55,309 nucleotides of DNA from an uncultured Candidatus Saccharibacteria bacterium (GCA_964596615.1 CAZQUN010000006.1:1-55309); one strand, 5' to 3'. Shown: positions 33,825 through 50,293, counted from the stretch's first letter. Program-made: numbers and translations. The notes: generated by a model not told the origin, from the sequence alone.

Positions 33825-33855
33825 TGGGAGATTATATCAGATAATGGGAAGATTG

Positions 33856-34530
33856 TCAAAATCTGTGTTTAATAATTGTCCATAAACCCTTAATTCCATC
33901 GTTAAATCTTATCTTCTTCCCCTCTCTAAATTTGCGGGGGTTGTAATCAATCGGAATTTCTTTAATAGGAATTCCTTTTTTTAATAATTTAGCTGTTAAC
34001 TCGGCTTCAATTTCAAATCCATTGCTTTCTAAATTAAGAGATTGCATTACTTTTGTTGGAATTAATTTATAACAGGTATAGGTATCAGTTAATTTTGAGT
34101 TAAAAAGCAGGTTATTAACCTTGGTTAAAAACCAAACACCAAGGATATAGTGAGAGTATCCTTTTCTTTTGGGATTAATATTTCTTGAGCCGTAAACAGC
34201 GTTGTTTTGGTTAAACTGACTCAGCATTTCTTTCCAGTTTTCCGGATTGTATTCTAAATCAGCATCCTGGATAATCACTGTCTCTCCACTAATGGCATCT
34301 ATCCCCGTTTTAAGAGCAGCTCCCTTGCCCTGATTCTTTTTATGGATTAAAAGAATGAAATTAAATTCTTTTTTTAATTCTCTTAAAATCTGATTGGTTT
34401 TATCAGTTGAGCCGTCACTGACAACAATCAGTTCTTTTTCAAGGCCAAGAGAAAGATTAATTACTTTTCTAATGACCTGTTCAACGGTTTTTTCTTCGTT
34501 GTAGACAGGAATGATAATTGATAATTTCAT
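33856..34530 (-). CDS. Family 2 glycosyltransferase (polyprenol-phosphate sugar transferase-like)
   Basis: It contains LSIIIPVYNEE, VSDGSTDKT and IQDADLEY (DxD). Confidence 0.85.
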   Translation of the reverse strand: MKLSIIIPVYNEEKTVEQVIRKVINLSLGLEKELIVVSDGSTDKTNQILRELKKEFNFILLIHKKNQGKGAALKTGIDAISGETVIIQDADLEYNPENWKEMLSQFNQNNAVYGSRNINPKRKGYSHYILGVWFLTKVNNLLFNSKLTDTYTCYKLIPTKVMQSLNLESNGFEIEAELTAKLLKKGIPIKEIPIDYNPRKFREGKKIRFNDGIKGLWTIIKHRF

Positions 34531-36032
34531 CTTATTCCAAAATTATTCTTTGAAATCTCGTATTGATTAATAATTGGTTGATTCAAATCATTCCTCTTCA
34601 GAAATATTATAGTAAATTGGTCAGCAAAAACAGGCGCCCAATCCGGATCACTTACCCGTTCAATTAAGAAATTCTGTCCCCAGGGAGTATAGTCCCGGTG
34701 AGAAAAGAATACGGCGTTAAAACTATACTTCTGACTTAAATTCTTCCAAGCAATATTATCCTGCTGAGCAGGGATATATTCATCTTTAAAATGAGAAACT
34801 GAATAGGCCTCGGGCCGGTTGTCAGTGAAAACTTTTTCAGGATAGAGATGATAAATTAAATATCCGCCAATATCGTAATTATTAAAAACCGGTCCTTTTA
34901 GATTCAATTCCTTAAAGAATTGAGCTGATTGATTATTGCCCGGATAAAGTCCGAATCCAAATCGCCCTTTTTGAAATGGTAATTTAGTTTGATAAGTGAC
35001 AAGAATTATCAGAAATATGGCCAGGCCTAAAATGACAAATCCGAATTGATAATCCCTCTTCCTTATTCTAACCCCCAATTGGCTAATATTAAAAGAAATG
35101 ATTGGCAGGGCGAATAAGCCAAAAAGAGGGAAATTGCGGATAGCCAACCAGCCAAGAATACTAAAAACAATTCCTAGTATTAAATGGGTTAAATTAAATT
35201 TCTTTTTCAGCCAGACAAGGATAAAGCTTAAAACCAAAAGGCCAAAAGTAATCTTAAAAAGAGTTAAATTGGGATTCTGAATAACACCCAATCTTTCCAA
35301 AAACCAAATTGATTGGTTTTCGACAATCTTATAGCCGTAATTTCTGAAAATATTAAAAGGATAAAGAAGTCCTTTGATAAAAAAAGGATTAATCAAGGTT
35401 GTCAGAAAAGTTAATCCTAAAATTGACCAGAGTTTTTTATTTTTTAATTCTTTAAGCAAAAACAATCCGATTAAAGCCGGACCAAAGACAAAGTAAATAT
35501 GAGTATTAACCCAGATAACTTCTAAAATTGGCAAAAGCCAGAGCCATTTATTTCCTAATTCATTATTTCTCCAACGCCATAAAATCCAAAAGAAAAAAGC
35601 AATAAAGAAATATGAAAATATTTCTGGCCTAATTTCAGTTCTTGAAGCCATTAAAGGAATCAAAGGCAAACTAACCAAAGCAGAAATCCAGAAACCGGAT
35701 TCTTTTTCTGAAATATTGAAGAAAAGATAAAAGATAATTAGAGATAAAATTAGATAAAAAAGGCCTAGTCCCCAGAAACCGGATATTTTTTCGATCAGGA
35801 AAAATATTACTCCCCCTCCCCAGTGATGATTAACAACAGGAAAATCGGGCTCGGTATATGAATAGAAATTTTTTCCTAAAATACCAAAATCACCATTAAG
35901 AATTAATTCTCCGTTTTTAAGGTGCCTGCCTAAATCAGCTGTGGTCAAATCAATTTTATGAACAAAAAAAAGCCCGTAGAAAGCTATTAATAATATTAGA
36001 ATAGAAATCTGAATGATCCTTTTCTTACTCAT
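34527..36032 (-). CDS. Polytopic membrane protein (possible GT-C-type glycosyltransferase partner of the GT2)
   Basis: 501 aa with more than 10 hydrophobic segments and a soluble C-terminal domain. It has a 4-nt overlap with the GT2 gene. Confidence 0.5.
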   Translation of the reverse strand: MSKKRIIQISILILLIAFYGLFFVHKIDLTTADLGRHLKNGELILNGDFGILGKNFYSYTEPDFPVVNHHWGGGVIFFLIEKISGFWGLGLFYLILSLIIFYLFFNISEKESGFWISALVSLPLIPLMASRTEIRPEIFSYFFIAFFFWILWRWRNNELGNKWLWLLPILEVIWVNTHIYFVFGPALIGLFLLKELKNKKLWSILGLTFLTTLINPFFIKGLLYPFNIFRNYGYKIVENQSIWFLERLGVIQNPNLTLFKITFGLLVLSFILVWLKKKFNLTHLILGIVFSILGWLAIRNFPLFGLFALPIISFNISQLGVRIRKRDYQFGFVILGLAIFLIILVTYQTKLPFQKGRFGFGLYPGNNQSAQFFKELNLKGPVFNNYDIGGYLIYHLYPEKVFTDNRPEAYSVSHFKDEYIPAQQDNIAWKNLSQKYSFNAVFFSHRDYTPWGQNFLIERVSDPDWAPVFADQFTIIFLKRNDLNQPIINQYEISKNNFGIR

Positions 36033-36056
36033 ATCTCTATCTTATCAGAAACAATC

Positions 36057-36617
36057 CTATTGGTTAATCCCTAAAAGCTCAACTTCGAAGATTAATAAGG
36101 CGTTGGGTGGAATTACTCCCGAAGCCCCGCTCTCGCCATAGCCGAATTGAGGTGGAATTATTAATCTCCTGACTTCTCCGACTTTCATGCCATTAATTCC
36201 TAAATCCCAACCCTGGATTACTTGTCCAGCGCCTAAATCAAAACTAAAGGGCTGGCCCCTGTCTAAAGATGAATCAAATTTAGTTCCATCCTCCAGGTAG
36301 CCGGTATAGTGGGCAGTAATTTTATCGCCGTTTTTAGCGACTTGGCCTGTTCCCTCTCTTAAAATCTGGGCAGTAATTTTAGTTCGGTCAATTTCCATTG
36401 CCTGTGTATTTTCCTCTGAATTATTTGATTCTTCCTTGGTATCTTCCCGATTAAAATCTATTCCTTCAATTTTATCTTTATCACCCTGAAAAAGCTGGAA
36501 AAGGAAATATATGCCGCCGATAAGAACGAGGGAAATGACAATTAGATAGATTACTATTTTAGTTTTATTAGACATAGTAAAACGGCTGACCATCGTGGAC
36601 AACGTTCGGACTATCAT
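36057..36617 (-). CDS. FKBP-type peptidyl-prolyl cis-trans isomerase, membrane-anchored
   Basis: It contains [59 protein letters not shown]...LIFEVELL. The start is uncertain, with ATGs at 36617, 36593 and 36575. Confidence 0.9.
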
Positions 36618-36701
36618 CCAGCGACAGAAAGATTATATCTACATTCCAGATTTAAGCCCGCAAGGTTAATTTATTAGATGTAGTTTCTACCAGAATTACA
36701 A

Positions 36702-36887
36702 TCATTTCATAAAAAAATCTTTAAACCGCATCCAAATAGAAAACAAAGGATTGGATTCAAATGAACCATATTCGCCATAAATTTTTATTGTATAGGGATA
36801 TTTAATAGATACAACAATCCAAAGTCCTAAATACAGAAATACCAAAAATCCGATAACTAATAAAAAAATTTTAGACTTTTTAGACAT
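36702..36887 (-). CDS. Small membrane protein, unknown
   Basis: 61 aa from the ATG at 36887 (MSKKSKIFLLVIGFLVFLYLGLWIVVS...). The track start at 36959 is a TTG. Confidence 0.4.
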   Translation of the reverse strand: MSKKSKIFLLVIGFLVFLYLGLWIVVSIKYPYTIKIYGEYGSFESNPLFSIWMRFKDFFMK

Positions 36888-37103
36888 AAAAATCAATAAT
36901 TGAAGTATATCAAATTTTACCCCACCCTTCAACTCGCCTATATTATAAAAAAGAGGCAAGAGCCGTAATTCTGGCTTTTACCCCCTTAACCTTAACAGAC
37001 CAACTACATTTTGAGATTTGGATTCCTCTCCTTTGGTTCTTTGAGTTCTCTGTGGATGTCTTTCGGCTTTGGGTTCTGTCTGCCATAAATTTGTTTTAAC
37101 TAC

Positions 37104-38117
37104 CTATTCTATTGGGGAAGCCGTAAGAACATTTTTTATTTTCCAAAAGGATTGTATAATACCCAGATTCTCATAATCACCACCACTAAGCCAAGTTGCT
37201 ATACCAACAATACATATTTCGCCGTCTATTTTTGAAACAGCCAATCCACCCGAAATACCAGAATCAATTTTTGCAGTAGTATAAAAATCCCCATTACTAT
37301 CTATACCGCTAATTATTCCATCAAGAACAATTAAATTTCTTTCGGAAATAACCAGTTCTGGTTCTCCTACACAAGGAAATTTAGGATTTAATTTGTTTAG
37401 AAAACAAGGGTCTGACATTTGATATTCTGCACCAGCTGAAGGATACCCGAAAACATATACTTTTTGACCAATAATGCCTTCGTCTGGGAAAACACCATCA
37501 AAAATATTCCCCTTTGAAGAACAAATAGGATAGTAGCTTAATAAAAGAGACTGCAAAACATCATCGGGAATAGAGGGTCTGTCTTCAACTTTTTCGCCGT
37601 GAATTTCTTCTGGATATTTAAGCAAGGCTATATCTATATCATCATCTAAGAAATGAGTTTTTTCATCATAAGTATACATACCAAGATATCTTCCATATTT
37701 TCCTTGAATTTCATTAAAGAAAATAGAACAGAAATTGAAATTATACCCCTCTTTAGTCATCTTTTTTAATTGGGCTACGTGGGCGTTGGTTAATATATAA
37801 CCCTTATTGTAATTAAATCCTTCTTCTGTGAGATTCTTTCCAGTGATTGAATTTTCAGAAAGATAAATCCCAGAACCATAAATGTCTTCACCCCATTGAC
37901 CATCACCATCTTCATCATACAAACATTCTAATCCTACTATTGATTTTGATATCGTTTCTATTTCTTCATTTGTTAGTTCTTGTGTTTGAATATTTTCTTG
38001 AGAGTCTTTATGAGATTTGGTAATTTGGGTGTAGACAAGATAACCGCCAACCGAAAGCAAGATGACAGCTCCCACAATAACGATTATAAGAACCATTGAA
38101 AGTCTTTCCTTTTTCAT
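37104..38117 (-). CDS. Trypsin-like (S1 family) serine protease, membrane-anchored
   Basis: The putative triad contexts are ILTNAHV (His), DIDIALLKY (Asp) and KIDSGISGGLAV (Ser). It has an N-terminal TM segment. Confidence 0.7.
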   Translation of the reverse strand: MKKERLSMVLIIVIVGAVILLSVGGYLVYTQITKSHKDSQENIQTQELTNEEIETISKSIVGLECLYDEDGDGQWGEDIYGSGIYLSENSITGKNLTEEGFNYNKGYILTNAHVAQLKKMTKEGYNFNFCSIFFNEIQGKYGRYLGMYTYDEKTHFLDDDIDIALLKYPEEIHGEKVEDRPSIPDDVLQSLLLSYYPICSSKGNIFDGVFPDEGIIGQKVYVFGYPSAGAEYQMSDPCFLNKLNPKFPCVGEPELVISERNLIVLDGIISGIDSNGDFYTTAKIDSGISGGLAVSKIDGEICIVGIATWLSGGDYENLGIIQSFWKIKNVLTASPIE

Positions 38118-38146
38118 AGATTTATTTCCTCTTATTTTATCCTACT

Positions 38147-38196
38147 CCTTAACTCACTATTTTCAAGGTTTTACCCTGCCCCTCAACTCACTATTT
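38147..38196. repeat. Two 16-nt direct repeats, CCTTAACTCACTATTT (38147-38162) and CCTCAACTCACTATTT (38181-38196)
   Basis: The two copies differ by 1 mismatch and start 34 nt apart. They lie in the gap between the protease gene start and the first gene of the R-M block. Confidence 0.6.
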
Positions 38197-38388
38197 ATTA
38201 AATTTCCTTTTTGGCTTCTTAATGTATCTTTCGGGATTTTCTCTCATATCAATTTTAAGCAATAAATCAAAATAGCCAACAAGGTTATTGACCATCTCGC
38301 TGGCTTCGGCGAATGAAACCTCTCTATCATAGTCTTCTTTTATTATTTTTTGAAATTCTAAAATGCGTTCTTTTGAAACTTGGGTCAT
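38191..38388 (-). CDS. Small acidic/basic protein, unknown, downstream of res
   Basis: 65-aa ORF with an ATG start, 4 nt after the res stop. Confidence 0.5.
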   Translation of the reverse strand: MTQVSKERILEFQKIIKEDYDREVSFAEASEMVNNLVGYFDLLLKIDMRENPERYIKKPKRKFNK

Positions 38389-38392
38389 TTGA

Positions 38393-40924
38393 CTAAATTT
38401 TCTTTACGGCTTCTGATAATTCTTGTTGTCTCTTTTGGAGCGAGGCGTCAAAGATAATATGATACTCAAAGTTTTTATTGGCTTGCTGAAATTCCCTAAA
38501 TCCCACCTCTTTAGCAAACACCTCATCAAAAAGGTCTTCTACCTTGCCCTTGTATTTCTTCTTGTTCTCCTCATAAGTCGTTTTCTCTTTGTTGGATTTT
38601 ACTTCAACCACTAAAAATCTGCCTTTTGTTGTTTCTATGAGAAAATCTGGAAAATAGCGGGCAATACGCTTTTCTCTTGGATTGTAGTATTCAAAGTAAA
38701 AATCGTTGTGCGTTGAGTCGGTTGCTCCGCCTGTAAAATAAATATCGGCAATCGCTTCATCTTTATTTAAGACATCTCGCAAATATCTAAAAAGGTCTTT
38801 CTCGTCAGAGCTGTCAAAATTATACGGGTTAATATGAAATCCCAAACGGCTTTTGCCGTATGCTTTTTCCATTTTCTCTTTGTAAATTACAAGGATATTT
38901 CTGCCCTGCTCAACACTGATTTTGAACGGATATAATTTTGCCAACTCTAATTCTTCTTCAATGGTCTCTGTCTTTTCTTGATATTGATAAGCCCCAGCCA
39001 AGATATTTTGAGTAATGAACAATAGAAATGCTGGACTCTTATTTACTTTCTTGGTTATATCATTCTTTGATAATCCATTATTCTCTAAAACCTGCTCAAT
39101 AGCCAAGCAAGGCAAATGAGTATAACGATTGATAACTTCCATAACCTCATAAAATGTAAAACCGCCTCTCTCTTTTATTTCTTTTTTTATTCTTGCTTCT
39201 TTATAGCCAGCCTGTTTGGCTTCATCTAAAAATATGCCGCCTTCCGTAATGAAAGAAAAATAGTTTTCGGGCTTGAATTTTCTAAGGTCAAATTTGATTT
39301 TATCTAAATCTTGATTTTGAACTGATAAAATTTCTTTAAGTGTCTTTTTTACTTTTAGTTTCTTCTTTTTCTCTATTTTAAGAGTATGTTCAATGGTTTT
39401 TTGGTCTTGAGCTGACAATTCTTCAATATCAGTAGCAAAGTTATTTTTAAGCTCTTTATCTAAAATGCGATAGTTTTCTTCTGAAAGGAAAATTGAAGCC
39501 AGCGTTGAATTATCGCCTATACTACGCAGGCAACGGGTTGAAGATTGTAAGACAAAAATGGCACTTCTTGGTCTCCTGTATAAAGCACAAGCGGCAAGCG
39601 AACGGCAATTCCAACCCTCTGTGCCTTTGCCAACGAGCAGAATAAATTGCTTCCTACTATCAATTGTATCAACAACAATAAACTCATCTTTATTTTCTTC
39701 GGCTTCGGTATGATATTCTAAAATCTTATCCAGAGAGATTTTTCTCTGTGTTAAAATCTTTTCCAGTTTTGGTCTTAAATCTTTTTGTAAGTCATCAATA
39801 CTGGCAGAGTAAAAAGCTATTTTAGGCAAGCGTCCTTCAAGCCGATTTTCTCCGTATTCGCCCCAGAACTTATCTACTACATCTTCAATAAATTTCTCCG
39901 TTCTTACTTTGCTATACTCAAAAAACCTTACCTGCTTCAAAATGCCTTTTTCAATACCCTGTTTCAGCCCGAAGTGATAAACTACATCAGCAATCATTTT
40001 ATTGCTCACATAAGGCGTGCCAGTAAGATTTATTACGCCCACGACAGGCGTCTTGCCTTCTTGATGGATATAGTTAATGGTCTGACGGGTTTTCTTTAGT
40101 GTGCCCTCAAGCGTCTTGCCGTAAGAGTGATGGGCTTCATCAACAAATACGATTAAATCTGTCAATTGTCTAATAGCCTGCAAACGCCTGTTTTCTATCT
40201 CACGCTTCGTCATATACTGCCAGTCAGAAAACAATCGTTGAGTGTTATTATTGTTTCGTTGGGTCTTCAAAATTATCTTCTGGGAATTAGAAATAATGAC
40301 ATTGTAATTACCGATTGGCGACAATGGCGTGGCGACATCTTCTAAGTAGTGATATTTAATGTTCAAAAGAATGTTCTGGTATTCTTTCGGGATTACCCGT
40401 GTATAATCAAAGGTTTTAATTTCCTTCAAGCTTTCAATAATTGTCGTGTCTGGGGCAAACACTAAAGCGTTTTTGGCAAAGCGTTTGTCTTCTGGATGAT
40501 AAAAAGACAATACAAAGTCATACAACATCATCACTGCCATTAAAATCGTTTTGCCAGCTCCCATTGTAAGAGCATAAACTTGATTGGGATAGTCAGAAAC
40601 ACCGAAGCGGTCTTCCATCAATTCAGCAATCTTTTTCTCGTTATCCATCAAATCAAATGCTTCTTCTTTAGAAATTCCTAAACCGAGAAGCATATCTTTT
40701 TTATTTCCGAAAAGCGACTTAAAGACTTCCAAAGATGAATTATTACCGACAACTTCTTTTAAGTAGATATAGGTTTCCAATGCTTCAACCTGTGGCTTAT
40801 GCAAAAAACCCACTCGCTTAATGTGGGTCAAAATGTTCAGCGTTTCTTTTTCCACACCCTTATAATTATCGTCTCGCCAGAGAGCTACTTTCTGCTGGAT
40901 GTGTTGTAAAAAGGGATTTTCCAT
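38393..40924 (-). CDS. res: Type III restriction enzyme, Res subunit (SF2 helicase plus PD-(D/E)XK nuclease)
   Basis: Motif I is TMGAGKT and motif II is VFVDEAHH (DEAH). The C-terminal nuclease motif is PDFLIETTKGRFLVVEVKS. The ATG at 40924 lies 4 nt after the mod stop; the track start is a TTG. Confidence 0.9.
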   Translation of the reverse strand: MENPFLQHIQQKVALWRDDNYKGVEKETLNILTHIKRVGFLHKPQVEALETYIYLKEVVGNNSSLEVFKSLFGNKKDMLLGLGISKEEAFDLMDNEKKIAELMEDRFGVSDYPNQVYALTMGAGKTILMAVMMLYDFVLSFYHPEDKRFAKNALVFAPDTTIIESLKEIKTFDYTRVIPKEYQNILLNIKYHYLEDVATPLSPIGNYNVIISNSQKIILKTQRNNNNTQRLFSDWQYMTKREIENRRLQAIRQLTDLIVFVDEAHHSYGKTLEGTLKKTRQTINYIHQEGKTPVVGVINLTGTPYVSNKMIADVVYHFGLKQGIEKGILKQVRFFEYSKVRTEKFIEDVVDKFWGEYGENRLEGRLPKIAFYSASIDDLQKDLRPKLEKILTQRKISLDKILEYHTEAEENKDEFIVVDTIDSRKQFILLVGKGTEGWNCRSLAACALYRRPRSAIFVLQSSTRCLRSIGDNSTLASIFLSEENYRILDKELKNNFATDIEELSAQDQKTIEHTLKIEKKKKLKVKKTLKEILSVQNQDLDKIKFDLRKFKPENYFSFITEGGIFLDEAKQAGYKEARIKKEIKERGGFTFYEVMEVINRYTHLPCLAIEQVLENNGLSKNDITKKVNKSPAFLLFITQNILAGAYQYQEKTETIEEELELAKLYPFKISVEQGRNILVIYKEKMEKAYGKSRLGFHINPYNFDSSDEKDLFRYLRDVLNKDEAIADIYFTGGATDSTHNDFYFEYYNPREKRIARYFPDFLIETTKGRFLVVEVKSNKEKTTYEENKKKYKGKVEDLFDEVFAKEVGFREFQQANKNFEYHIIFDASLQKRQQELSEAVKKI

Positions 40925-40928
40925 AAAA

Positions 40929-42683
40929 TTATACCGATACCTCAAAAGTCTCAAAGTATTCTTCGCCAAGCACATCAACAATTTTTACCGCTACCGCATA
41001 CTTGCCTTTTTTCTCGTAATCCCAATCATACTTGCCCTTAATAATTTCTTTCTTGCTTGGCAAATCCATAATTTCAGCATTAAAAAGTTTGCCGTTATAA
41101 TCAACATCAATCGCAACGCTATCTACAATCTGCCTAAAATCTTTTACTTTGGCTTGATATTCTTTTTTAAGTGTTCTGGCGTTTTCAATTTCCAATTTCC
41201 TCATCAAAATTGGCGAATAAAACTCTTTAATCTCTACCAATAGTTTTTTATCCTTAGCTTTTGCTGTGATTTTTGCTTCGGGCTTTTTCTTGAAAATGAG
41301 ATTTTTCTTATCGGTTAAAATATCTCGGATTTCAACTTTTACGCCAGTCTTATTTTCCTTTTTTAAAAAATCAGATACATCAAGCTCCATCCCAGAACAA
41401 ATAATCAAAACACCTTCTTCATAAACTGGCTCGCCTGATTTTGATTTTCTCTTAACCGAGAAAGTATCAATTTTATCTTCAACATTTTTCAACGCCGTCT
41501 TAATATCCAACTTATTCAACACTCGGTTCATCGGCATTACCCTCACAAAATTATTATCCAGAACGCCATCAAAATAACTTCGCTTTATCGGTTCTACGCC
41601 ATACATTTCCATTACGATTTCTTTTGCTTCCAGTTCATTCTTGAAAACATCGTAATCATTAACATTGTAGATTTTGAACGCAGGCAAACCCTTAAAATCT
41701 TTATGCTTTTCTTTTTGTTGCCCTTGAATAACTTGATTAAGTCGTTTGGCTGTCGTTTGTATCGCTCCCAAGTTAATATCACAGGCAATCCAGCGTCTGC
41801 CAAGTTTTTGAGCTACCGCAGAAGTTGTGCCAGACCCAACAAAAAAATCAGCAACAATGTCCCCTTCATTTGAGGATGCCTTGATTATTCGTTCTAAAAG
41901 AGCTTCTGGTTTTTGAGTTGGATATCCTATATGTTCTTCGCTCATTGCATTAACTTTAATATCCCAGACATCTGACGGGATTTTGCCCTTTGGCATTTCT
42001 TTTCCTTTCTGACCGCCTCTTGTATATCTCCATTCAGTCATTTTACTTTTATAGGGAACAAGTATTGCTTCTGTATTAAAAATAAAATCTTTATTTTTTG
42101 AATATCCGTATATGTTGTCGTGTTTATAGCCAAATCTTTCCTTGCCTCGTGCTCCATAATCATAATGCCATATAATCTCATTTCTAAAATTATCCTCTCC
42201 AAAAACCTCGTCCATTATCAATCTTAAAAATGCTCCTTTGTGCCAATCGCAATGCAAATAAATGCTCCCTGTGTCAGCAAGGAGTTCACGCATAATTAAA
42301 AGCCGCTCATACATAAACTGCAAATACTCGTCTTTTTCCCAAATGTCAGTGTATTGTTTTTCTTCTAACAAACTATGCTGTTCGCCTTCTACTTTTTCAC
42401 CTCTGATTTTTACCTTCTTTACATACTCGGCTTTGCTGTCAAAAGGCGGGTCAATGTAAATCAAATCAATCTTACCCCGATATTCTTTTAAGAGATGGGC
42501 TAAAACTTGAAGGTTGTCGCCCCAGAAAAGTTTATTAAATTCTTTGGAATTTTTATCACCATAAATTTCTTTTTCTTGAGCTGGATAGTATTCTATTTTA
42601 TCCAAAGGTTTTTTGCCCGCCCATTGAAGCATTGGTCTACCTTTGGCTTTTTCAATTGATTGTAATTGTAATTTTTTAGTCAT
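40929..42683 (-). CDS. mod: Type III restriction-modification methyltransferase, Mod subunit (N6-adenine, beta class)
   Basis: Motif IV is [10 protein letters not shown] and motif I is [15 protein letters not shown]. The central variable region is TRD-sized. It lies directly upstream of res. Confidence 0.9.
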
Positions 42684-42686
42684 ATT

Positions 42687-42831
42687 GTCGCTGAGGTTTT
42701 AAGCGTGTATCAGAGAACCAAAAAGGGTCTCCCGACACACCGACAGCCCCTTTCGGGAACTGCCCTATACCCTTTCGGATATAGACCTCAGCGACGAAGT
42801 AGTGGTCAGAAGACCCTTTTCATCGCTGAGG
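42687..42831 (-). ncRNA. Structured 5' leader of mod, with mutually exclusive helices and two GAAA-capped hairpins
   Basis: GTCGCTGAGGT (42687-42697), ACCTCAGCGAC (42785-42795) and TCGCTGAGG (42823-42831) can pair in alternative ways. AAAAGGGTCT (42721-42730) pairs with AGACCCTTTT (42811-42820). On the minus-strand RNA there are two hairpins, CUAUAUCC-GAAA-GGGUAUAG and CAGUUCCC-GAAA-GGGGCUG. Confidence 0.55.
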
Positions 42832-42882
42832 ATTTTGTGCCATACCTTATAAATAAGGGTTAGGCAATTCAATTGTTAATAC

Positions 42883-43080
42883 TTATGTCTTTTCTTTCTG
42901 ATTTAACAATTTCAAAATATCTTCTTTCCTGTATCGTCTATCTTTCCTATCGCCAAAACGAACCGCAACCAAAATACCCTTTTTGTCCCATTGACGCAAG
43001 GTATTCGGATGAACCTTTAAAGCCTCGCAAGCCTCTTGAAGTGTTAATAACTCTGGCAATTCTAATTTCATCTTTCCCAT
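42883..43080 (-). CDS. Excisionase/MerR-family HTH DNA-binding protein
   Basis: LLTLQEACEALKVHPNTLRQWDKKGILVAVRFGDRKDRRYRKEDI is an HTH_17-like pattern. The alternative ATG at 43071 forms an ATGA overlap with the upstream stop. Confidence 0.7.
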   Translation of the reverse strand: MGKMKLELPELLTLQEACEALKVHPNTLRQWDKKGILVAVRFGDRKDRRYRKEDILKLLNQKEKT

Positions 43081-43574
43081 AATTTTAATTTATCCCATTT
43101 GTTTTTTCTTTGTTCTAATTCTTGACGGAAATCCCTAAAATCAAACCAACGAAATCCTACGTCCTTTCTCTGACCCCCGCCTCTTTTAGGTTTAGAAAGA
43201 TATTTTTGATAATTTTCTTTCACTAATTTTGCTAACTCGTCTCTATTAAAAATATAAAATTCTGGTATCTGTCCGTGCTCAATCAAATTTACAAGAATAA
43301 CAAAAAATTTCTTTGTGCCAATTTTTTCTTCAATATTTTTATTTAATTTCCAACCTTGTTTATTACCTACGGACATTGTCTTTACTTGAATGTTTGCGAA
43401 CCTTGAACCATCTGGGGTAGTAGCAATAACATCAATCTCTGGGTTATTCTTAGGGGCTAAAACAGCAACAATTCCCCTGCTGGATAATTCTGCACAAACA
43501 AAATACTCTCCGCTTAGGCTAACTAATATGTTTTTTGAAATCTCTCTCATAAGATTTGATTTACAACCTAACAT
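43068..43574 (-). CDS. Hjc-like PD-(D/E)XK-fold protein (putative nuclease), unknown role
   Basis: The pattern GEYFVCAELSSRGIVAVLAPKNNPEIDVIATTPDGSRFANIQVKT matches G..E....L...G....(D)-(I/V)(I/V)A...(E/Q)VK of resolvase/restriction-type folds. The C-terminus is basic. Confidence 0.45.
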   Translation of the reverse strand: MLGCKSNLMREISKNILVSLSGEYFVCAELSSRGIVAVLAPKNNPEIDVIATTPDGSRFANIQVKTMSVGNKQGWKLNKNIEEKIGTKKFFVILVNLIEHGQIPEFYIFNRDELAKLVKENYQKYLSKPKRGGGQRKDVGFRWFDFRDFRQELEQRKNKWDKLKLWER

Positions 43575-43642
43575 TTGATAACATTATTATACAGCAGAGA
43601 AAAGCAATCTGCAACATTAAATGATTATTACCAGAAATTACT

Positions 43643-45604
43643 ATGACCCCAGAGGAAAAATTTAATCAAGAAATTTGGTGGATTTTGCAGGAAATAAAGA
43701 GAGATAACTATCTTACCCCGAAAGGACAGAAGATTGAATTTTCTTTACGAAGCCTACCGAAAACAAGAAGCGTAAGACGAAGGGATGTTGATTACGGCTT
43801 TCCGCAGGAAGAAGTCCAGCGAAAACTTTTATTCAAATTACAGGAATGGAAAGCTCTTGAGGTTCAGCCAATAGATAACGTTTTACGAGGGGGCGATATT
43901 TTCAACCCACGTATTTATGACTTAATAATCAAACAGCCAAAATTTGATGAGCTTTATAAAAAATACGAACTCGCCAATAGCCCAAAGGGAACTGAGCAAC
44001 AGGTTAAACCGATTTTAAGAAAAATTGAAAACGGAAAACTCCCATACAAAAAAGATGGGATATTTTATTCGCTCTGGAAATATGCCAACGCAAGCAGATT
44101 GACAGGAAAGAACTTAATCTCGTTTATGGATTTAGCACCTCTGGAAGGAAATCCCCGTTTCGCTATTTTTGATTTTTTAAACAGCTTGCAGGAATTAAAA
44201 ATTGAACTGGAAGACATAACCTTTCACAAAGATATTTACAAAAAATACTGCAAAACAGAACACGATTATATAACCGACTACATCACTAAAAATCCCAAAG
44301 CAGACTTCAGTAAAGCGATTAAAAAATTATTCAAAAATAAAGCTACTTTTGATGATATTTCTAAGATACTCGGCAAATTTGATGAATTTGTAAAAATGAA
44401 ATTGCAACTTAATGGGCTTTTAGAATTTGTTGAATTTAGCCCGTCTCCATCAGCAAAAAATATAAAACCCCTTAAGAAGGATTTGGAAACATACATTAAC
44501 TGCTTCATTGAGGATAAACTTTTTTCTCCCGAATTAAAGAATTTTTATAGATTTTCAAGACAGAAAGAAATCTTTTTACAACAAATAGAAAATGATGTGC
44601 AGGACTATGGATTAAATTTTGTATTCAGACAAGGAGAAATTATAGGAGTCAGAAAAGGTCGTGGTGCGACAATAGGCAAAGACGAAGCATATTTGTTCAT
44701 CCATACCTTATCAGCTTTAGAAAAGCAGGGCTTCTTTGAAATAGAGAGTATTTTAATTATAGATATGGACGTCCCACCAGAAAAACAAACTGATGACTAT
44801 AAAATTAAAATAATGGCTTCAGAAAAATTATTAAGTGAATATGGAAACAAAAAGGAAGAAACGACTTTAATAAGTAGTAAGAAGAAAATAGATTATAACA
44901 GCAAAGCAGAACGTCTGGCGTGGGAGAAAAAATGGGATACTCTCCAAACCATTAAAACAGCCTATGTTTCGTCTGGTTGGGCAAATAACATAATTATACC
45001 CATTAAAAAACTCACTATAAAAGACAGGACTACCGAAGAAATAGACAGCATTATTTCTGGTTTTCAAAAAGAAGATTATTTTAAAAAATGGGTCAGAGAA
45101 AAAGAGATTTATGTAATTGAAAATATCAATCACGATGAATTTGACAAACTCTACGCTCAAACAAAAAACATTTATAAGAAGTTTGCTAAAACCCATCAAG
45201 AAAAGAAGAAGAATCACGAAACAGCCGACCAGCCTTCAATCATTGCCCAAAAAACAAAATTTGATTCTATGACTGGCGTCTTAGCCCATAAAAACACACT
45301 TCACAAGTTTCAAAGAGGGACAAGAGGAGATAAAACAAGATTATTATTATTTAGAAAGCTATGGAATGAAAGACGTTATATCAAAAACGGAATGGTAAAA
45401 AGAAAAGGCAAACCCCTAATGCCAGAGTTTTTAGCTGTCCAATTAAACATTACCAGCGACGCCCAAACATTTAACCGCAACAAAAAAGCAAAGGACAACC
45501 TCTTTAATCTCATCAAAGGAATAAATAGAATACTAAGAAACAAAGGATTCCCAGCAAAAATAGAAAGACAAAATGCTATTCAGTTAGTAATCACGGAAAA
45601 ATAA
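43643..45604 (+). CDS. Large Lys-rich orphan protein, no recognisable domain
   Basis: 653 aa with an ATG start, followed by a clean intrinsic terminator. It is divergent from the nuclease-like gene. Confidence 0.7.
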   Translation: MTPEEKFNQEIWWILQEIKRDNYLTPKGQKIEFSLRSLPKTRSVRRRDVDYGFPQEEVQRKLLFKLQEWKALEVQPIDNVLRGGDIFNPRIYDLIIKQPKFDELYKKYELANSPKGTEQQVKPILRKIENGKLPYKKDGIFYSLWKYANASRLTGKNLISFMDLAPLEGNPRFAIFDFLNSLQELKIELEDITFHKDIYKKYCKTEHDYITDYITKNPKADFSKAIKKLFKNKATFDDISKILGKFDEFVKMKLQLNGLLEFVEFSPSPSAKNIKPLKKDLETYINCFIEDKLFSPELKNFYRFSRQKEIFLQQIENDVQDYGLNFVFRQGEIIGVRKGRGATIGKDEAYLFIHTLSALEKQGFFEIESILIIDMDVPPEKQTDDYKIKIMASEKLLSEYGNKKEETTLISSKKKIDYNSKAERLAWEKKWDTLQTIKTAYVSSGWANNIIIPIKKLTIKDRTTEEIDSIISGFQKEDYFKKWVREKEIYVIENINHDEFDKLYAQTKNIYKKFAKTHQEKKKNHETADQPSIIAQKTKFDSMTGVLAHKNTLHKFQRGTRGDKTRLLLFRKLWNERRYIKNGMVKRKGKPLMPEFLAVQLNITSDAQTFNRNKKAKDNLFNLIKGINRILRNKGFPAKIERQNAIQLVITEK

Positions 45605-45632
45605 TCGGAGTGCTAAAAAGGTGATTAAATTT

Positions 45633-45657
45633 GCCCTCAATTAAGAGGGCTTTTTTA
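45633..45657 (+). terminator. Rho-independent terminator after the 653-aa gene
   Basis: GCCCTC-AATTAA-GAGGGC followed by TTTTTT. Confidence 0.75.
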
Positions 45658-45806
45658 TTTTTGCCTATTTTATCAACTAATTTAAGTTTGGCTATGGGGT
45701 AAATTTTTGCACCCCAGTTTTTATTTCAATCACTATGAGAAAATAAAAATGTCTCTGAAAAAGAAACACAAGGTCGCCTTTAATCTATTAACCTAACAAA
45801 AATTAT

Positions 45807-46079
45807 ATGACCAAAAAATTACAAAAAAGTCGGGCTTATGATGACCCAGATATTTACTGGGCAACTTTTGATTTGGGTTGTGCCTCTGCCGTCATCACAG
45901 CAGGATTTGAACTTATTTCATTAGAAAAATCCAATCCACGCAAAGTCCAATTTATCTTTCGCCGAGAAGTCGGAATAGAAAAAGTCGTTGATGACTACTG
46001 GGCAGACCGCTTAGAAATTAAGGCACGAACATTTTTTGATAATGTCAAAATGTTAAAAAATCGTATCTACAGCGAATAA
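45807..46079 (+). CDS. Small protein resembling DUF5659-type proteins of small mobile elements
   Basis: 90 aa containing TFDLGCASAVITAGFELISLEKSNPRKVQFIFRRE...DDYWADRLEIKARTFFDNVKMLKNRIY. The family assignment is from memory of the pattern only. Confidence 0.4.
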   Translation: MTKKLQKSRAYDDPDIYWATFDLGCASAVITAGFELISLEKSNPRKVQFIFRREVGIEKVVDDYWADRLEIKARTFFDNVKMLKNRIYSE

Positions 46080-46081
46080 AT

Positions 46082-46279
46082 ATGCTATCGGAAGAACAAA
46101 TCACAAAATTCCAGATACTTTATAGAAATCGCTTCGGCAAAGAAATTAGCCGAGAAGAAGCCTATGAAAAAGGAAGTAAGCTTATTCGGCTTGTGGAACT
46201 AATTTATAAGCCAATGACAAAAAATGACTATAAACGACTACAAAAACGCCGCAAGGAAACCGAAAAAGATTTGACTTAA
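46082..46279 (+). CDS. Small protein, unknown
   Basis: 65-aa ORF starting 3 nt after the previous stop. Confidence 0.5.
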   Translation: MLSEEQITKFQILYRNRFGKEISREEAYEKGSKLIRLVELIYKPMTKNDYKRLQKRRKETEKDLT

Positions 46280-46341
46280 AAATTACGCTTGGAGTATTCC
46301 CCGAAATTTCGGGACAACAAAATTAAGTCATTAAGACAATT

Positions 46342-47544
46342 ATGGATACTTCAAGACAAATAAAAAAGCAGGATTATATGCTTGATACGATAGCTATAAA
46401 AGTAATACACCCAGAATTTAAGGTTGCCAACCCCAACCTTTTTACTCCTGCTTTTGTCATTCAAAGCAATTATTTTAATTATCAATACGGACACAATAGA
46501 TTTAGAAAATACAAACAAAATCCAAGTGCCCAAGATAAGCAAAATGACATACACAATCCACGCCTTACGGCTTATCAACGATTTAGAGAAAATATACCAA
46601 CCTATGACTTGCACATTGAATTTTCCATACCAAAACTGATTTTGGGGAATAGCGTCCAAGAATTAGAAGATAGCGACCTCAAAACAATAATCTCATTGCT
46701 AAAAACACGCCTTTTCAGAATGGGTATAGAGGTATCCGAAAAAGCATTAAACGACGCCGTTGTGGTAAAAGCACATTTCGGGAAGAATATACCATTATCG
46801 CACCAATTAACGGCACAGGACGCAATTTCTGGACTTTACAAGGCAGATTTAGGCAAAAGGAAAGATATAAACATAAGGCATTACGGGAACGATGGGCAAG
46901 CACTCTATTTCTACGCTTCATCTGCCAACATTATTTTCTATGATAAGCTACGAGATATAGCTACGCCAAAAAACAAAGCGATGGACAAAATCAAACTCAA
47001 ACAGGAAAAACAATTGCTACAAGGAATGGACATAGATAAACAACAAGAAATACTGCGATTTGAAGTTAGACTAACAAGACAACAAAGCCTTAATGCCTTT
47101 TTATCAAAAGCTCTTGATTCAAAGATTGAAAAAATAACCTTTGAAAAAATATTCAGTAAAGAACTTTGCCAAAAAGTATTGCTTGCAAGCTGGGAAGAAA
47201 TTCTAAACAGACCAGCCAATCAATTAGCTTTGAAAATTGAAAAACCGCCAGAAGAAGTGCTTGATGTAATAATTAAAAGATTAAATACAGACCAAAAGAA
47301 AAAAGCTCATTCTCTTAACAAAACACTGGCAAGCTTTGGATTATATATGTTGATTAACCATTGCGGTGCTCGGAAAACAAGAAATAAAATTGAGAAAAAC
47401 TGGACAAATAAAAGTTGGGTGCGTTTAGGCGAAAAAGTAAAAGAATCTGCTGTAATGTTAGAAGAAATACCTACTCTGCCTATAATGAACGACATACAAT
47501 CAGCTTTAGAAAAATTTGAAAAGTATAATTGGCGAACCGAATGA
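46342..47544 (+). CDS. Putative replication initiation protein (gene II/Rep_trans-like), weak call
   Basis: 400 aa. An internal M-L-D-T-I-A-I-K-V start context and ILRFEVRLTRQQ resemble rolling-circle initiator blocks. It lies next to the recombinase in a small element. Confidence 0.3.
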   Translation: MDTSRQIKKQDYMLDTIAIKVIHPEFKVANPNLFTPAFVIQSNYFNYQYGHNRFRKYKQNPSAQDKQNDIHNPRLTAYQRFRENIPTYDLHIEFSIPKLILGNSVQELEDSDLKTIISLLKTRLFRMGIEVSEKALNDAVVVKAHFGKNIPLSHQLTAQDAISGLYKADLGKRKDINIRHYGNDGQALYFYASSANIIFYDKLRDIATPKNKAMDKIKLKQEKQLLQGMDIDKQQEILRFEVRLTRQQSLNAFLSKALDSKIEKITFEKIFSKELCQKVLLASWEEILNRPANQLALKIEKPPEEVLDVIIKRLNTDQKKKAHSLNKTLASFGLYMLINHCGARKTRNKIEKNWTNKSWVRLGEKVKESAVMLEEIPTLPIMNDIQSALEKFEKYNWRTE

Positions 47545-47720: not shown

Positions 47721-49490
47721 ATGGAAAATAAAACTGATAAAATTAAATACTTCCTCTACGCCAGAAAATCATCAGAGAGTGAAGACCGACAGGTTCAGTC
47801 CATTGAAGACCAAGTTAATCGGCTAAAGCAACTTGCCACTGATTTGAATTTGGATATTAAGAAAACCTATACCGAATCAAAGTCAGCCAAGAAGCCAAAC
47901 AATCGTCCTATCTTTGACGAAATGATACAAAGGATTGAAAACAAGGAAGCCGATGGGATTTTATGCTGGCAAATAAACCGATTATCCCGTAATCCGATTG
48001 ATAGCGGCAAATTAAGCTGGTTATTACAGCAAGGGACACTTAAATCAATCCAAACCATAGACCGCCAGTATCTGCCTGATGACAATGTTCTGCTCTTTAA
48101 TGTTGAGAGTGGAATGGCTAACCAGTATATTTTAGATTTAAGAAAGAATGTTAAAAGAGGCACGGAAAGCAAACTGCAAAAGGGATGGAAACCTAATCTT
48201 GCCCCGCTTGGCTACCTAAACGATAAGGCGGAAAAAACAATTATAAAAGACCCTGAACGATTTAACCTTATTCGCAAGATGTGGGACTTAATGCTAACAG
48301 GAAATTATACGCCACCAAAGATTTTAGATATTGCCAATGATGAATGGGGTTTTAGAACCAGAAAGTTTAAGAAAATCGGCGGCAAGGAATTATCCAGAAG
48401 CGGAATTTACAAAATTTTTACTAATATCTTCTACGCTGGCATTATTGATTACTATAATACTCAATATCAAGGCAAGCACGAACCAATGATAACGCTTGAA
48501 GAATATGACCGAGTGCAAATGCTTTTGGGAAGAAAAGGAAAGCCCAGACCGCAAAAACATCAATTCGCTTTTACAGGATTTATCCGTTGCGGCGAGTGCG
48601 GCTGTCTGCATACCGCAGAAATTAAAAAGAAACTCATTAAAAACACTGGCAAGATTAAAACATATACTTATTATCACTGCACCAGAAAAAAGAAAGACAT
48701 TAAATGTTCTCAAAAGAAATTCATTAAAGAGGATGATTTAGAACTACAAGTTGAAAAAGAAATAGAAAAATACACCATCCTGCCAGAATTTCTGAATTGG
48801 GCTTTAGAAGGATTAAATAACAAAAACGACAGAGAGATTGAAGACAGGACGAAAGTCTACGAAACACAGCATAAGGCAATAGCCCAGACTCAAAACGAAT
48901 TGGACGAGCTGACTAAAATGAGATACCGCCTATTGATTGATGACGAGACCTTTCTTAAAGAAAAAAACGAACTCAAAGCTAAAATAAGCCAGTTAAAAGG
49001 CAAATTAAGAGAAACCGAGAAAAGAGCCGAAAGATGGCTGGAAATAACTGAAAAGACCTTTAATTTCGCTACCTACGCTCGCCACAACTTCATTAAAGGC
49101 GGCTTAGAGACCAAGAAAGAGATTTTAATGGCATTAGGTCAGAACCCGACCATAAAGGACGGAAAACTTAGTATTAAAGGCAATGAATGGCTACAACCTA
49201 TCGCTGACGGCTATCCTGCCTTAGAAAAAGAATACCTAAGGTTAGAACCAGCCAAAAACCGCACCAATAAAGCAAAAAACGAGCAGTTATGCTCGCTTCG
49301 TGCACAATGGCTGGGGAGGAGGGATTCGAACCCCCGATCATGGAGCCAGAGTCCATTGCCTTACCGCTTGGCTACTCCCCATTATTCCTCTTCCAGATAT
49401 CTTCGGATGGCAACCAGGCTACTGACTGTCCCCAGGGCAATACCAACCCCAACCTGGAGCAGAAACAGAGCCAGAAAGTTTGTCTGGTAG
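47721..49490 (+). CDS. Large serine recombinase; the last ~70 codons are read from host sequence (terminator, antisense tRNA-Gln, antisense ftsX 3' end)
   Basis: The N-terminal resolvase domain is YARKSSESEDRQVQSIEDQ (catalytic Ser). A recombinase domain, a Zn-ribbon (CGECGC...YYHCTRKK) and a coiled coil follow. The tail ...WLGRRDSNPRSWSQSPLPYRLATPH is a typical antisense-tRNA translation. Confidence 0.9.
   Translation: MENKTDKIKYFLYARKSSESEDRQVQSIEDQVNRLKQLATDLNLDIKKTYTESKSAKKPNNRPIFDEMIQRIENKEADGILCWQINRLSRNPIDSGKLSWLLQQGTLKSIQTIDRQYLPDDNVLLFNVESGMANQYILDLRKNVKRGTESKLQKGWKPNLAPLGYLNDKAEKTIIKDPERFNLIRKMWDLMLTGNYTPPKILDIANDEWGFRTRKFKKIGGKELSRSGIYKIFTNIFYAGIIDYYNTQYQGKHEPMITLEEYDRVQMLLGRKGKPRPQKHQFAFTGFIRCGECGCLHTAEIKKKLIKNTGKIKTYTYYHCTRKKKDIKCSQKKFIKEDDLELQVEKEIEKYTILPEFLNWALEGLNNKNDREIEDRTKVYETQHKAIAQTQNELDELTKMRYRLLIDDETFLKEKNELKAKISQLKGKLRETEKRAERWLEITEKTFNFATYARHNFIKGGLETKKEILMALGQNPTIKDGKLSIKGNEWLQPIADGYPALEKEYLRLEPAKNRTNKAKNEQLCSLRAQWLGRRDSNPRSWSQSPLPYRLATPHYSSSRYLRMATRLLTVPRAIPTPTWSRNRARKFVW
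49274..49295 (-). terminator. Rho-independent terminator downstream of tRNA-Gln
   Basis: The minus strand reads CGAGCA-UAAC-UGCUCG followed by UUUUUU, 12 nt after the tRNA CCA end. The stem is only 6 bp. Confidence 0.5.
49308..49381 (-). tRNA. tRNA-Gln (anticodon CUG), CCA encoded
   Basis: The reverse complement is TGGGGAGTAGCCAAGCGGTAAGGCAATGGACTCTGGCTCCATGATCGGGGGTTCGAATCCCTCCTCCCCAGCCA. It has the U1-A72 pair and GCCAAGCGGTAAGGCA D-arm seen in bacterial tRNA-Gln, and the anticodon loop is CUCUGGC. Confidence 0.9.
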
Positions 49491-50293
49491 AAGTAAAACA
49501 GGTCAGTCCCTGGTAAATAGGACGTCACCTTGGGTGAAATATACCAGACTAATGGATACAAAATCAAGAGTGAAATCAGGGCGGCAATAACTCCGTAAAG
49601 CGCCCCTTCGACAACAAAAGGGCCTCTAACAAACCAATTACTTGCTCCAACCAGTTTCATTACCTTAATTTCCTTCCGAGCGGAGTAAATTGTTAATCGG
49701 ATGGTATTAAAACTAACAACAACCGCCATAATTGCCAGAATGACTAAAATGATGAAACCGAGTTGGCGAATAGTATTGGTAATGGAAGAAAGACGGGCGA
49801 TAACGGCTTTGTTTTCCAGGTAATTTATCTTATCAATAATTTGATCGTAACTGCTCTGGTTAAAAAAGCCGACAATGGTTTCGTATTGAGAGGCCTGCTG
49901 GGCCTTAATATTCAAACTGGCTTCTAAAGGATTGGATTCAAGTTCTTCCAGGCTTTGGATTAAAACATCATTATCCTGATGCTTTTCCTTGAATCTTAAA
50001 AGAGCCTCCTCGGTTGAAACGTATTCAACGCTTTTAACTTCTGATAATTTAATCAAATCACCTCTTAGGTTCAGAATATCATCCTCATCAGCATCAAGGT
50101 TAAAATAGACGCTAACATCAATCTTATCCTCCAGATTAGTTGTCAAAGAATCAACTAAAACATTAACTAAAAGCAAACTCGTCAGGCCCAGAATTGCCAG
50201 ACTCATGATTGAAATGGCGGCTGAGGAAAGCCATTTATTCCTCCAAAAACTTAACCAGCCAGATTTGAAAATGCGTGAAATTGTTTCAAGCAT
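49382..50293 (-). CDS. ftsX: Cell division ABC transporter permease FtsX
   Basis: 303 aa with an FtsX topology: a TM segment, a periplasmic domain and three C-terminal TM segments. It lies directly downstream of ftsE. Its stop codon abuts the tRNA-Gln 5' end. Confidence 0.88.
   Translation of the reverse strand: MLETISRIFKSGWLSFWRNKWLSSAAISIMSLAILGLTSLLLVNVLVDSLTTNLEDKIDVSVYFNLDADEDDILNLRGDLIKLSEVKSVEYVSTEEALLRFKEKHQDNDVLIQSLEELESNPLEASLNIKAQQASQYETIVGFFNQSSYDQIIDKINYLENKAVIARLSSITNTIRQLGFIILVILAIMAVVVSFNTIRLTIYSARKEIKVMKLVGASNWFVRGPFVVEGALYGVIAALISLLILYPLVWYISPKVTSYLPGTDLFYFYQTNFLALFLLQVGVGIALGTVSSLVAIRRYLEEE

Follow-up and report, generated by a model that had tools for sequence, protein, structure and literature searches.

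The expression platforms of riboswitches and attenuators consist of terminator and antiterminator helices and of helices that sequester the start site. In toxin mRNAs of the hok/sok type, competing long-range pairings keep the start site closed. Control by C-proteins is protein-based, acts on transcription, and separates the timing of the methylase from that of the nuclease.

The Rfam 14 paper presents LOOT (Rfam RF03000), which derives from alignments by Weinberg and Breaker, as a 'metagenomic-based RNA' (PMC7779021). Two covarying pairs were added to it in the Rfam 15 paper (PMC11701678), and the CaCoFold paper gives it approximately 43 base pairs in six helices (PMC7657543). The passages on LOOT in these three papers assign it no function. 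The literature searched contained no functional study of LOOT, and the main text of PMC5737381 uses the word solely as the name of a cited author. In Rfam, the family type is 'Gene; sRNA'.

Here, we analyzed a stretch of 55,309 nucleotides from an uncultured Candidatus Saccharibacteria bacterium (GCA_964596615.1 CAZQUN010000006.1:1-55309), referred to as the window. The region at positions 42684–42882 precedes, on the minus strand, the Type III-like DNA methyltransferase gene mod. A preliminary description had portrayed this leader as a riboswitch-like element of no recognized RNA family that might serve as a timing device for a restriction-modification system.

The mod leader is a full-length LOOT RNA

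A cmscan search against Rfam 15 assigned positions 42866–42742 of the minus strand to LOOT (RF03000), with a score of 75.8 bits against a gathering score of 46.4 and an E-value of 4.5e-14. The match spans positions 1–121 of the 121-position model and is not truncated. In the model alignment and the MFE fold, all four LOOT hairpins are present, comprising P1 with its internal loop, a long P2, a GAAA-capped P3, and a GNRA-capped P4. The leader before mod is a member of the LOOT family, and its supposed absence from the known RNA families is overturned by a match 29 bits over the cut-off. The first and second arm copies of the preliminary description correspond to the basal stem of P2, and its two GAAA hairpins to P3 and P4; the P1 hairpin (42866–42838) was missing from its list.

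The locus shares with the catalogued family its full length, the four hairpins, the P1 internal loop, the P3 GAAA loop, and the small-genome phylum in which it occurs. It differs from the catalogued form in that the Rfam model stops at P4, whereas the tail helix, the U-run, and strands c and a2 described below all lie outside it. Furthermore, Rfam lists LOOT among small RNA genes, and the context observed here suggests a leader instead. The leader reading is new relative to the literature searched, while the RNA itself was already catalogued.

The letters of the P1 internal loop, CCUAA and AUGG, are near-invariant, each being invariant or at least 90% conserved across 52 sequences. The position next to this loop is occupied by A with C in 31 of the 52 sequences and by C with U in eight. 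Of the GAAA letters capping P3, the two in the middle never vary within the family, and the outer G and A are conserved to at least 90%; the P4 loop of the relatives is mostly GNRA. We take the P1 internal loop to resemble the classical 11-nucleotide GAAA-tetraloop receptor, for which the P3 GAAA loop would presumably be a possible docking partner. Judged by their letters, these two conserved elements look like tertiary-contact motifs, unlike a ligand pocket.

Directly 5′ of P1 lies a conserved box, ACAAUUGAAU (42876–42867, minus strand), which probably represents the first bases of the transcript. In 34 of 52 LOOT loci, the 20 nt preceding P1 contain the motif ACAAYU. A −10-like hexamer ending 12–24 nt upstream of P1 is found in 36 of 52, and was not called at the mod copy.

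Distribution of LOOT and samples

The source genome (724 kb in 15 contigs, 93% completeness) carries three LOOT copies whose P2 sequences differ. Small ORFs of 65 or 47 aa begin within 24–40 nt after the second (L001, G000:C7:11974-12096, 85.3 bits) and the third (L003, G000:C2:35900-36012, 69 bits), and both copies are devoid of a2. LOOT was detected in 16 of 101 genomes of relatives, in 29 of 151 genomes of the class, and in 30 of 151 genomes of the phylum, in samples that overlap and in each of which the source genome is counted. None of the 14 control genomes contained LOOT over the cut-off, and one sub-threshold match was seen among them. The positive genomes measure 0.5–1.3 Mb and hold one to four copies each. 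In one of them, two copies (L020 and L008, G097:C11:12604-12722 and 13873-13996) lie 1.27 kb apart on one strand, the former preceding a 76-aa ORF and the latter a methyltransferase-Mrr fusion gene.

The first set for the comparative analysis comprised 55 matches. Two of these were removed, L018 for falling short of the cut-off with 36 bits and L019 for being truncated at the end of a contig; L046, a near-duplicate of L038, was additionally dropped in some of the counts. A hold-out set of 40 further matches from other classes of the phylum was gathered after the ideas had been formed. Gene starts were picked by a heuristic. The genomes are related to one another, and the cross-locus controls given below take the loci as independent of kinship.

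Architecture of the leader

Every motif of the preliminary description was recovered at its position on the minus strand, between 42831 and 42687. The first arm copy, CCUCAGCGA (42831–42823), lies in arm a (42831–42819), which forms the 5′ strand of P2. It is followed by AAAAGGGUCU (42820–42811) in strand b (42820–42805). Strand b makes up the 5′ side and the loop of the P2 apex, and it can pair either locally (GGUC/GACC) or with the tail strand b″. The 3′ strand of P2 is the central copy, arm a′ (42798–42786, containing GUCGCUGAGGU), whose partner is a or a2. Pairing of the central copy with the upstream copy had been proposed over 9 bp; the pairing holds, and its actual extent is 13 contiguous pairs including one G·U. 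P3 (42784–42765) is an 8-bp hairpin with a GAAA loop in the model alignment, as had been reported. P4 (42764–42742), also GAAA-capped, had been assigned 7 bp and instead forms 9 bp with a one-base bulge in the MFE fold.

The 3′ tail (42740–42720) lies beyond the Rfam model. Within it, strand b″ (42736–42720), which contains AGACCCUUUU, pairs with b in a duplex of −32.6 kcal/mol and leads into the U-run. Strand c (42715–42705) can compete for the 5′ half of the tail (42740–42729), with a duplex of −14.7 kcal/mol; in the MFE fold, strand c is part of a hairpin whose loop contains the U-run. The third arm copy, strand a2, is ACCUCAGCGAC (42697–42687), followed by AAU and then by the mod AUG at 42683. 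In agreement with the preliminary description, a2 can pair with a′ over 11 bp, and 3 nt lie between its end and the AUG. The mod leader contains mutually exclusive helices, in which a′ is engaged by a or a2 and b″ by b or c.

The 221-nt minus-strand RNA folds with −84 kcal/mol, compared with −51.8 ± 4.8 kcal/mol for 200 shuffles (z = −6.79), and 0 of the 200 shuffles folded as well. The RNA of the plus strand in the same region gave a z of −4.14. The GNRA loops and the model match are strand-specific, which bears out the earlier remark that the GAAA loops exist only on the mod-sense strand.

A covarying helix joins the P2 apex to the tail

In the LOOT loci, the stretch right after P4 can base-pair with the P2 apex, both with its 5′ strand and with its loop, and a U-rich run comes next. 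Helix b:b″ reaches at least nine contiguous pairs in 50 of the 55 first-set loci. Covariation was assessed over 15 column pairs of a MAFFT alignment of 52 sequences. The long-range helix of the preliminary description proved to covary, with 90.5% of the cells paired against 69.1% in shuffles and 45–51% when the partner was slid by 1–3 columns. Fourteen of the 15 pairs vary on both sides, and the covariation score of 0.70, compared with 0.27 in shuffles, was reached by 0 of 500 shuffles. In the hold-out set, 26 of 40 loci attained a score of at least 9, versus 8.4% of cross-locus pairs.

Among 1000 b:b″ pairs, 202 are G·U; consequently, the pairing works only on the LOOT strand. This bears on an alternative in which the repeats act as DNA, as recombinase sites or in phase variation or cassette exchange, with no RNA structure involved. 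The location of the element within a low-GC stretch and the recombinase genes that immediately precede LOOT in 4 of 42 loci are in its favor. Against it, the 20% of b:b″ pairs that are G·U become A·C mismatches on the other strand, the GNRA loops and the covariance-model match are confined to one strand, and the arm sequences differ in nearly every locus with the pairing kept. We regard action as DNA as extremely improbable.

Since b:b″ and the short local apex hairpin of the Rfam model use the same strand, the two exclude each other. Loop L1 mostly measures 3–8 nt and loop L2 mostly 3–9 nt, and both stems have a median of 11 bp. These loop lengths would permit P2 and b:b″ to coexist as a pseudoknot, and the notion that the two helices are sterically incompatible was abandoned after the loops had been measured.

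A U-run follows b″ in nearly all loci. It does so in the mod leader as well, where the stem partner of b″ in a putative terminator, however, lies approximately 70 nt upstream, across a′, P3, and P4. A simple scan called no classical terminator at all, and no promoter was called for the mod copy.

A third arm copy adjoins the start codon in a subset of loci

Strand a2, scoring at least 9 against the a′ of its own locus, is present in 12 of the 53 first-set loci, compared with 0.55% of cross-locus pairs. All 12 copies lie 38–64 nt after P4 and end 0–7 nt before an ATG or GTG, and the ORFs opened beside them span 85–481 codons. The duplex between a′ and the start region reaches −14 kcal/mol or lower in 12 of 46 loci, against 0.9% in the cross-locus control. 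The other 34 loci are at the null level for this energy, which identifies a2 as an optional module. The mod leader is among the loci that carry it. In the hold-out set, 8 of 40 loci scored at least 9 (cross-locus, 1.0%), and seven of these eight copies lie directly before or over an ATG; for the eighth, L072, there is none within 12 nt. Overall, a2 occurs in 20 of 93 loci. Because it is missing from the remaining 73, start-site gating cannot be the general function of LOOT. The statement that five of five differences between a and a2 keep the pairing was discarded as true by construction, since both helices are defined by contiguous pairing.

In four loci, the ORF beside an a2-type copy is cut by early stops, after 24 (L058), 37 (L075), 11 (L081), and 21 codons (L090); the copy in L090 scores 8 and is not among the eight of the hold-out set. 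Similar reading continues past these stops, and the ORFs may be decaying genes behind intact leaders.

A duplex of −12 kcal/mol or lower between strand c and the tail is found in 22 of 52 loci versus 18% cross-locus, a control value inflated by the similar tails that loci share. The c hairpin is present in 45 of 92 loci, namely 15 of 20 with a2 and 30 of 72 without it. Among loci with a2, 1 of 20 has a motif resembling a Shine-Dalgarno sequence before the start, versus 14 of 65 among those without a2, and the mod start region has no such sequence.

Competing folds are close in energy

Fold energies were calculated for nested structures only, with the pseudoknotted state outside their reach. 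On this basis, the forced a′:a2 fold of the mod leader has −78.2 kcal/mol against −80.5 kcal/mol for the MFE fold, a cost of 2.3 kcal/mol. Among the 12 first-set leaders with a2, the forced fold lies within 3.5 kcal/mol of the MFE in nine and equals it in three, and it costs 7.7–12.3 kcal/mol in the remaining three leaders. For RNAs ending at the U-run, 29 of 52 loci allow b:b″ to replace the base of P2 in a fold no more than 3 kcal/mol from the MFE. The alternative-pairing layout put forward in the preliminary description is real and conserved, with an a2 that matches the a′ of the same locus in 20 of 93 loci and with two folds of nearly equal energy at mod.

These results bear on the proposal that LOOT does not switch and instead forms a compact, pseudoknotted 5′ element of fixed structure, acting for instance to stabilize the mRNA or as a protein-binding platform, in which a2 and c are by-products or serve another purpose. 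The loop lengths that allow P2 and b:b″ to form together, the resemblance of the P1 internal loop and the P3 GAAA loop to tertiary-contact motifs, and the 73 of 93 loci without a2 are in line with such an element. A static structure does not account for an a2 that matches its own P2 in 20 loci, versus approximately 1% cross-locus, and that lies near a start codon (L072 excepted), for the company that c keeps with a2, or for competing folds of nearly equal energy in 9 of 12 loci. A purely static role for LOOT appears unlikely to us.

Gene context of LOOT

The mod gene (42683–40929, minus strand; start codon 42683–42681) encodes a Type III-like DNA methyltransferase, with matches to Pfam N6_N4_Mtase (2.7e-54) and to PADLOC MTase_III (5.3e-76, over residues 50–574). 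A nuclease/helicase-like gene (40924–38393, minus strand) follows, and since its ATG lies 4 nt after the mod stop, the two are placed in the same operon. Its matches are weak and partial, comprising the NCBIfam restriction endonuclease BPTD_3080 (97 bits against a cut-off of 800), Pfam SWI2_SNF2, and a TnsA-like N-terminal match, and none of the PADLOC Type III nuclease models matched it. Therefore, the Type III label is secure only for mod. On the other side of the leader, a 65-aa excisionase/MerR-type HTH gene (43080–42883, minus strand; Pfam HTH_17, 1.6e-11; PADLOC mad1, 1.4e-9) ends 17 nt before P1. With no promoter called between them, the LOOT of the mod locus may be co-transcribed with this gene.

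A co-directional ATG ORF of at least 40 aa begins 21–98 nt after P4 in 47 of 53 first-set loci, and within 100 nt of P4 in 33 of 40 hold-out loci. Approximately 20 nt of this gap is taken up by the tail. Because the gap leaves no room for a promoter, we infer that the downstream gene must be read from the LOOT transcript.

This spacing weighs on the possibility that LOOT is a free-standing sRNA with its own promoter, ended by the apex:tail helix and the U-run, whose exposed a′ would pair in trans with the a2 of read-through mRNAs as a private antisense feedback. The 'Gene; sRNA' type in Rfam, the −10-like hexamer at a fairly constant upstream distance in 36 of 52 loci, and the nearly universal U-run after b″ agree with a small RNA of this kind. 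Of 52 terminated forms, 29 can likewise adopt the b:b″ fold, in which a′ is unpaired, no more than 3 kcal/mol from the MFE, and the different P2 sequences of the three copies in the source genome would make any trans pairing specific to its own locus. With the next gene starting 21–98 nt after P4 in 47 of 53 loci and no room for a promoter of its own, however, read-through must occur, and pairing within one molecule should then beat pairing in trans. In addition, strand c exists only in the read-through RNA, and the simple scan yielded no classical terminator. An independent sRNA therefore seems to us a rather improbable account of LOOT.

The genes downstream of LOOT are heterogeneous. DNA methyltransferases account for 5 of 92 (mod and those at L005, L008, L010, and L060). 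Others encode SNase, HNH, NERD, DUF2726, and TnsA-like nucleases, an MmeI-like N-terminus, six DUF4352 proteins, two subtilases, a glycosyltransferase, and zinc-ribbon proteins, and many encode small proteins without a Pfam match. A search for homologous leaders with covariation had been suggested as a check of the leader upstream of Type III mod genes. It returned homologues and the covarying b:b″ helix, and the tie to methyltransferase genes did not hold (5 of 92). Strand a2 is found in 4 of 5 methyltransferase loci versus 16 of 87 others, an association that is suggestive only, the loci being related; a methyltransferase gene thus follows in only 4 of the 20 loci with a2. A broader link of a2 to DNA-acting enzymes, seen in the first set (5 of 12 loci with a2 versus 3 of 34 without it), was dropped when the hold-out set failed to reproduce it (1 of 8 versus 3 of 32).

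The two roles first envisaged, a metabolite riboswitch or a restriction-modification device that delays the nuclease, can be weighed against this context. The mutually exclusive helices, which do resemble an expression platform, and the frequency of a2 at methyltransferase loci (4 of 5 versus 16 of 87) speak for them. The label 'riboswitch-like' stands for these helices and is not supported in its sense of a ligand sensor, as the 92 downstream genes share no pathway and are too varied for one metabolite. The timing device is contradicted by the small share of methyltransferases, 5 of 92, and by the order of the genes. Since mod and the nuclease-like gene lie behind one leader, 4 nt apart, the leader would gate both jointly, and it could therefore not delay the nuclease relative to the methylase. 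The link of a2 to DNA-acting enzymes was also lost in the hold-out set. Taken together, we rate both roles as very unlikely.

C-protein control resembles the mod locus in that a regulator is placed upstream of a restriction-modification unit. The two differ in that LOOT is a single RNA leader before both mod and the nuclease-like gene, and the 65-aa protein encoded upstream is of the HTH_17/MerR/excisionase type.

No conserved upstream partner of LOOT was found among the 42 nearest upstream ORFs. These include three large serine recombinases, a tyrosine integrase, a terminase, and an antirepressor. In L024, L043, and L044, LOOT lies 38–63 nt downstream of the large serine recombinase genes, and in L013, L045, and L022 it adjoins the tyrosine integrase, the terminase, or the AntA antirepressor. 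Such neighbors fit a home on mobile elements or prophages. In the window, the GC content is 0.33–0.36 across approximately 33000–47500 and 0.38–0.40 on both sides. A comparison of 49200–49560 with 34000–40000 for an attachment-site repeat gave one 12-mer only and nothing convincing, and a blastn search of the leader against a phage collection gave no match.

Discussion

We propose, with somewhat more confidence than doubt, that LOOT in the mod transcript is a cis-acting 5′ leader with two folds. In the first, the native LOOT fold, P1, P3, and P4 would be formed and P2 would consist of a:a′. The P2 apex would pair with the tail through b:b″, ending in the U-run, and c and a2 would remain single-stranded, leaving the mod start region open. 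In the second fold, c would capture the tail and a2 would capture a′. The sequence would then be buried to within 3 nt of the AUG, and initiation would presumably be blocked. Helix b:b″ with the U-run may also end some transcripts before mod, and the two folds would interconvert in the cell. The two-state leader is supported by the family membership, the covariation of b:b″, the presence of a2 and c matched to their own locus, the near-equal energies, and the downstream gene. As for the trigger, we consider stabilization of the conserved scaffold, be it through ions, a protein, or the kinetics of folding, more likely than a metabolite, because the conserved letters look like tertiary contacts.

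By analogy, such a leader would work like the expression platform of a riboswitch or attenuator and, more loosely, like hok-type mRNAs, while belonging to neither family. With the platforms it would share a strand that has two exclusive partners, a state that hides the initiation region, and a helix with a U-run upstream of the gene. Riboswitches differ from it in that no ligand or binding pocket is indicated for LOOT and its gene context is non-metabolic; furthermore, riboswitch helices are conserved, whereas the switching helix of LOOT varies greatly in sequence. The proposed likeness to hok/sok lies in competitor strands that act in cis within one mRNA to decide the translation of a potentially harmful gene, and in a mobile-element setting, which is putative for LOOT. 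LOOT is nevertheless unrelated to hok/sok in sequence and structure, no antisense partner gene is seen at its loci, and no processing step is known for it.

For the family as a whole, we tentatively suggest, a little short of even confidence, that LOOT serves the cargo genes of mobile elements in ultra-small bacteria as a bistable, self-contained 5′ leader. The conserved hairpins P1, P3, and P4 would be the scaffold that holds a fast-evolving 'address' hairpin in place, and c and a2 would dismantle this hairpin, closing the start site.

For the window, these findings mean that the leader is to be annotated as LOOT, and neither as a new RNA class nor as a dedicated restriction-modification device. 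LOOT has been catalogued since 2017, and the literature searched offers no function for it. The own-locus a2 and the covarying tail helix turn an 'unknown small RNA' into the hypothesis of a cis gate that can be tested by mutation. If the bistable-leader reading is true, premature termination and translation control would be coupled to the folding state of one RNA. To our knowledge, almost nothing is known about gene regulation in candidate-phyla bacteria. The hypothesized gate would control accessory genes, some of them potentially harmful, in the mobile islands of these organisms.
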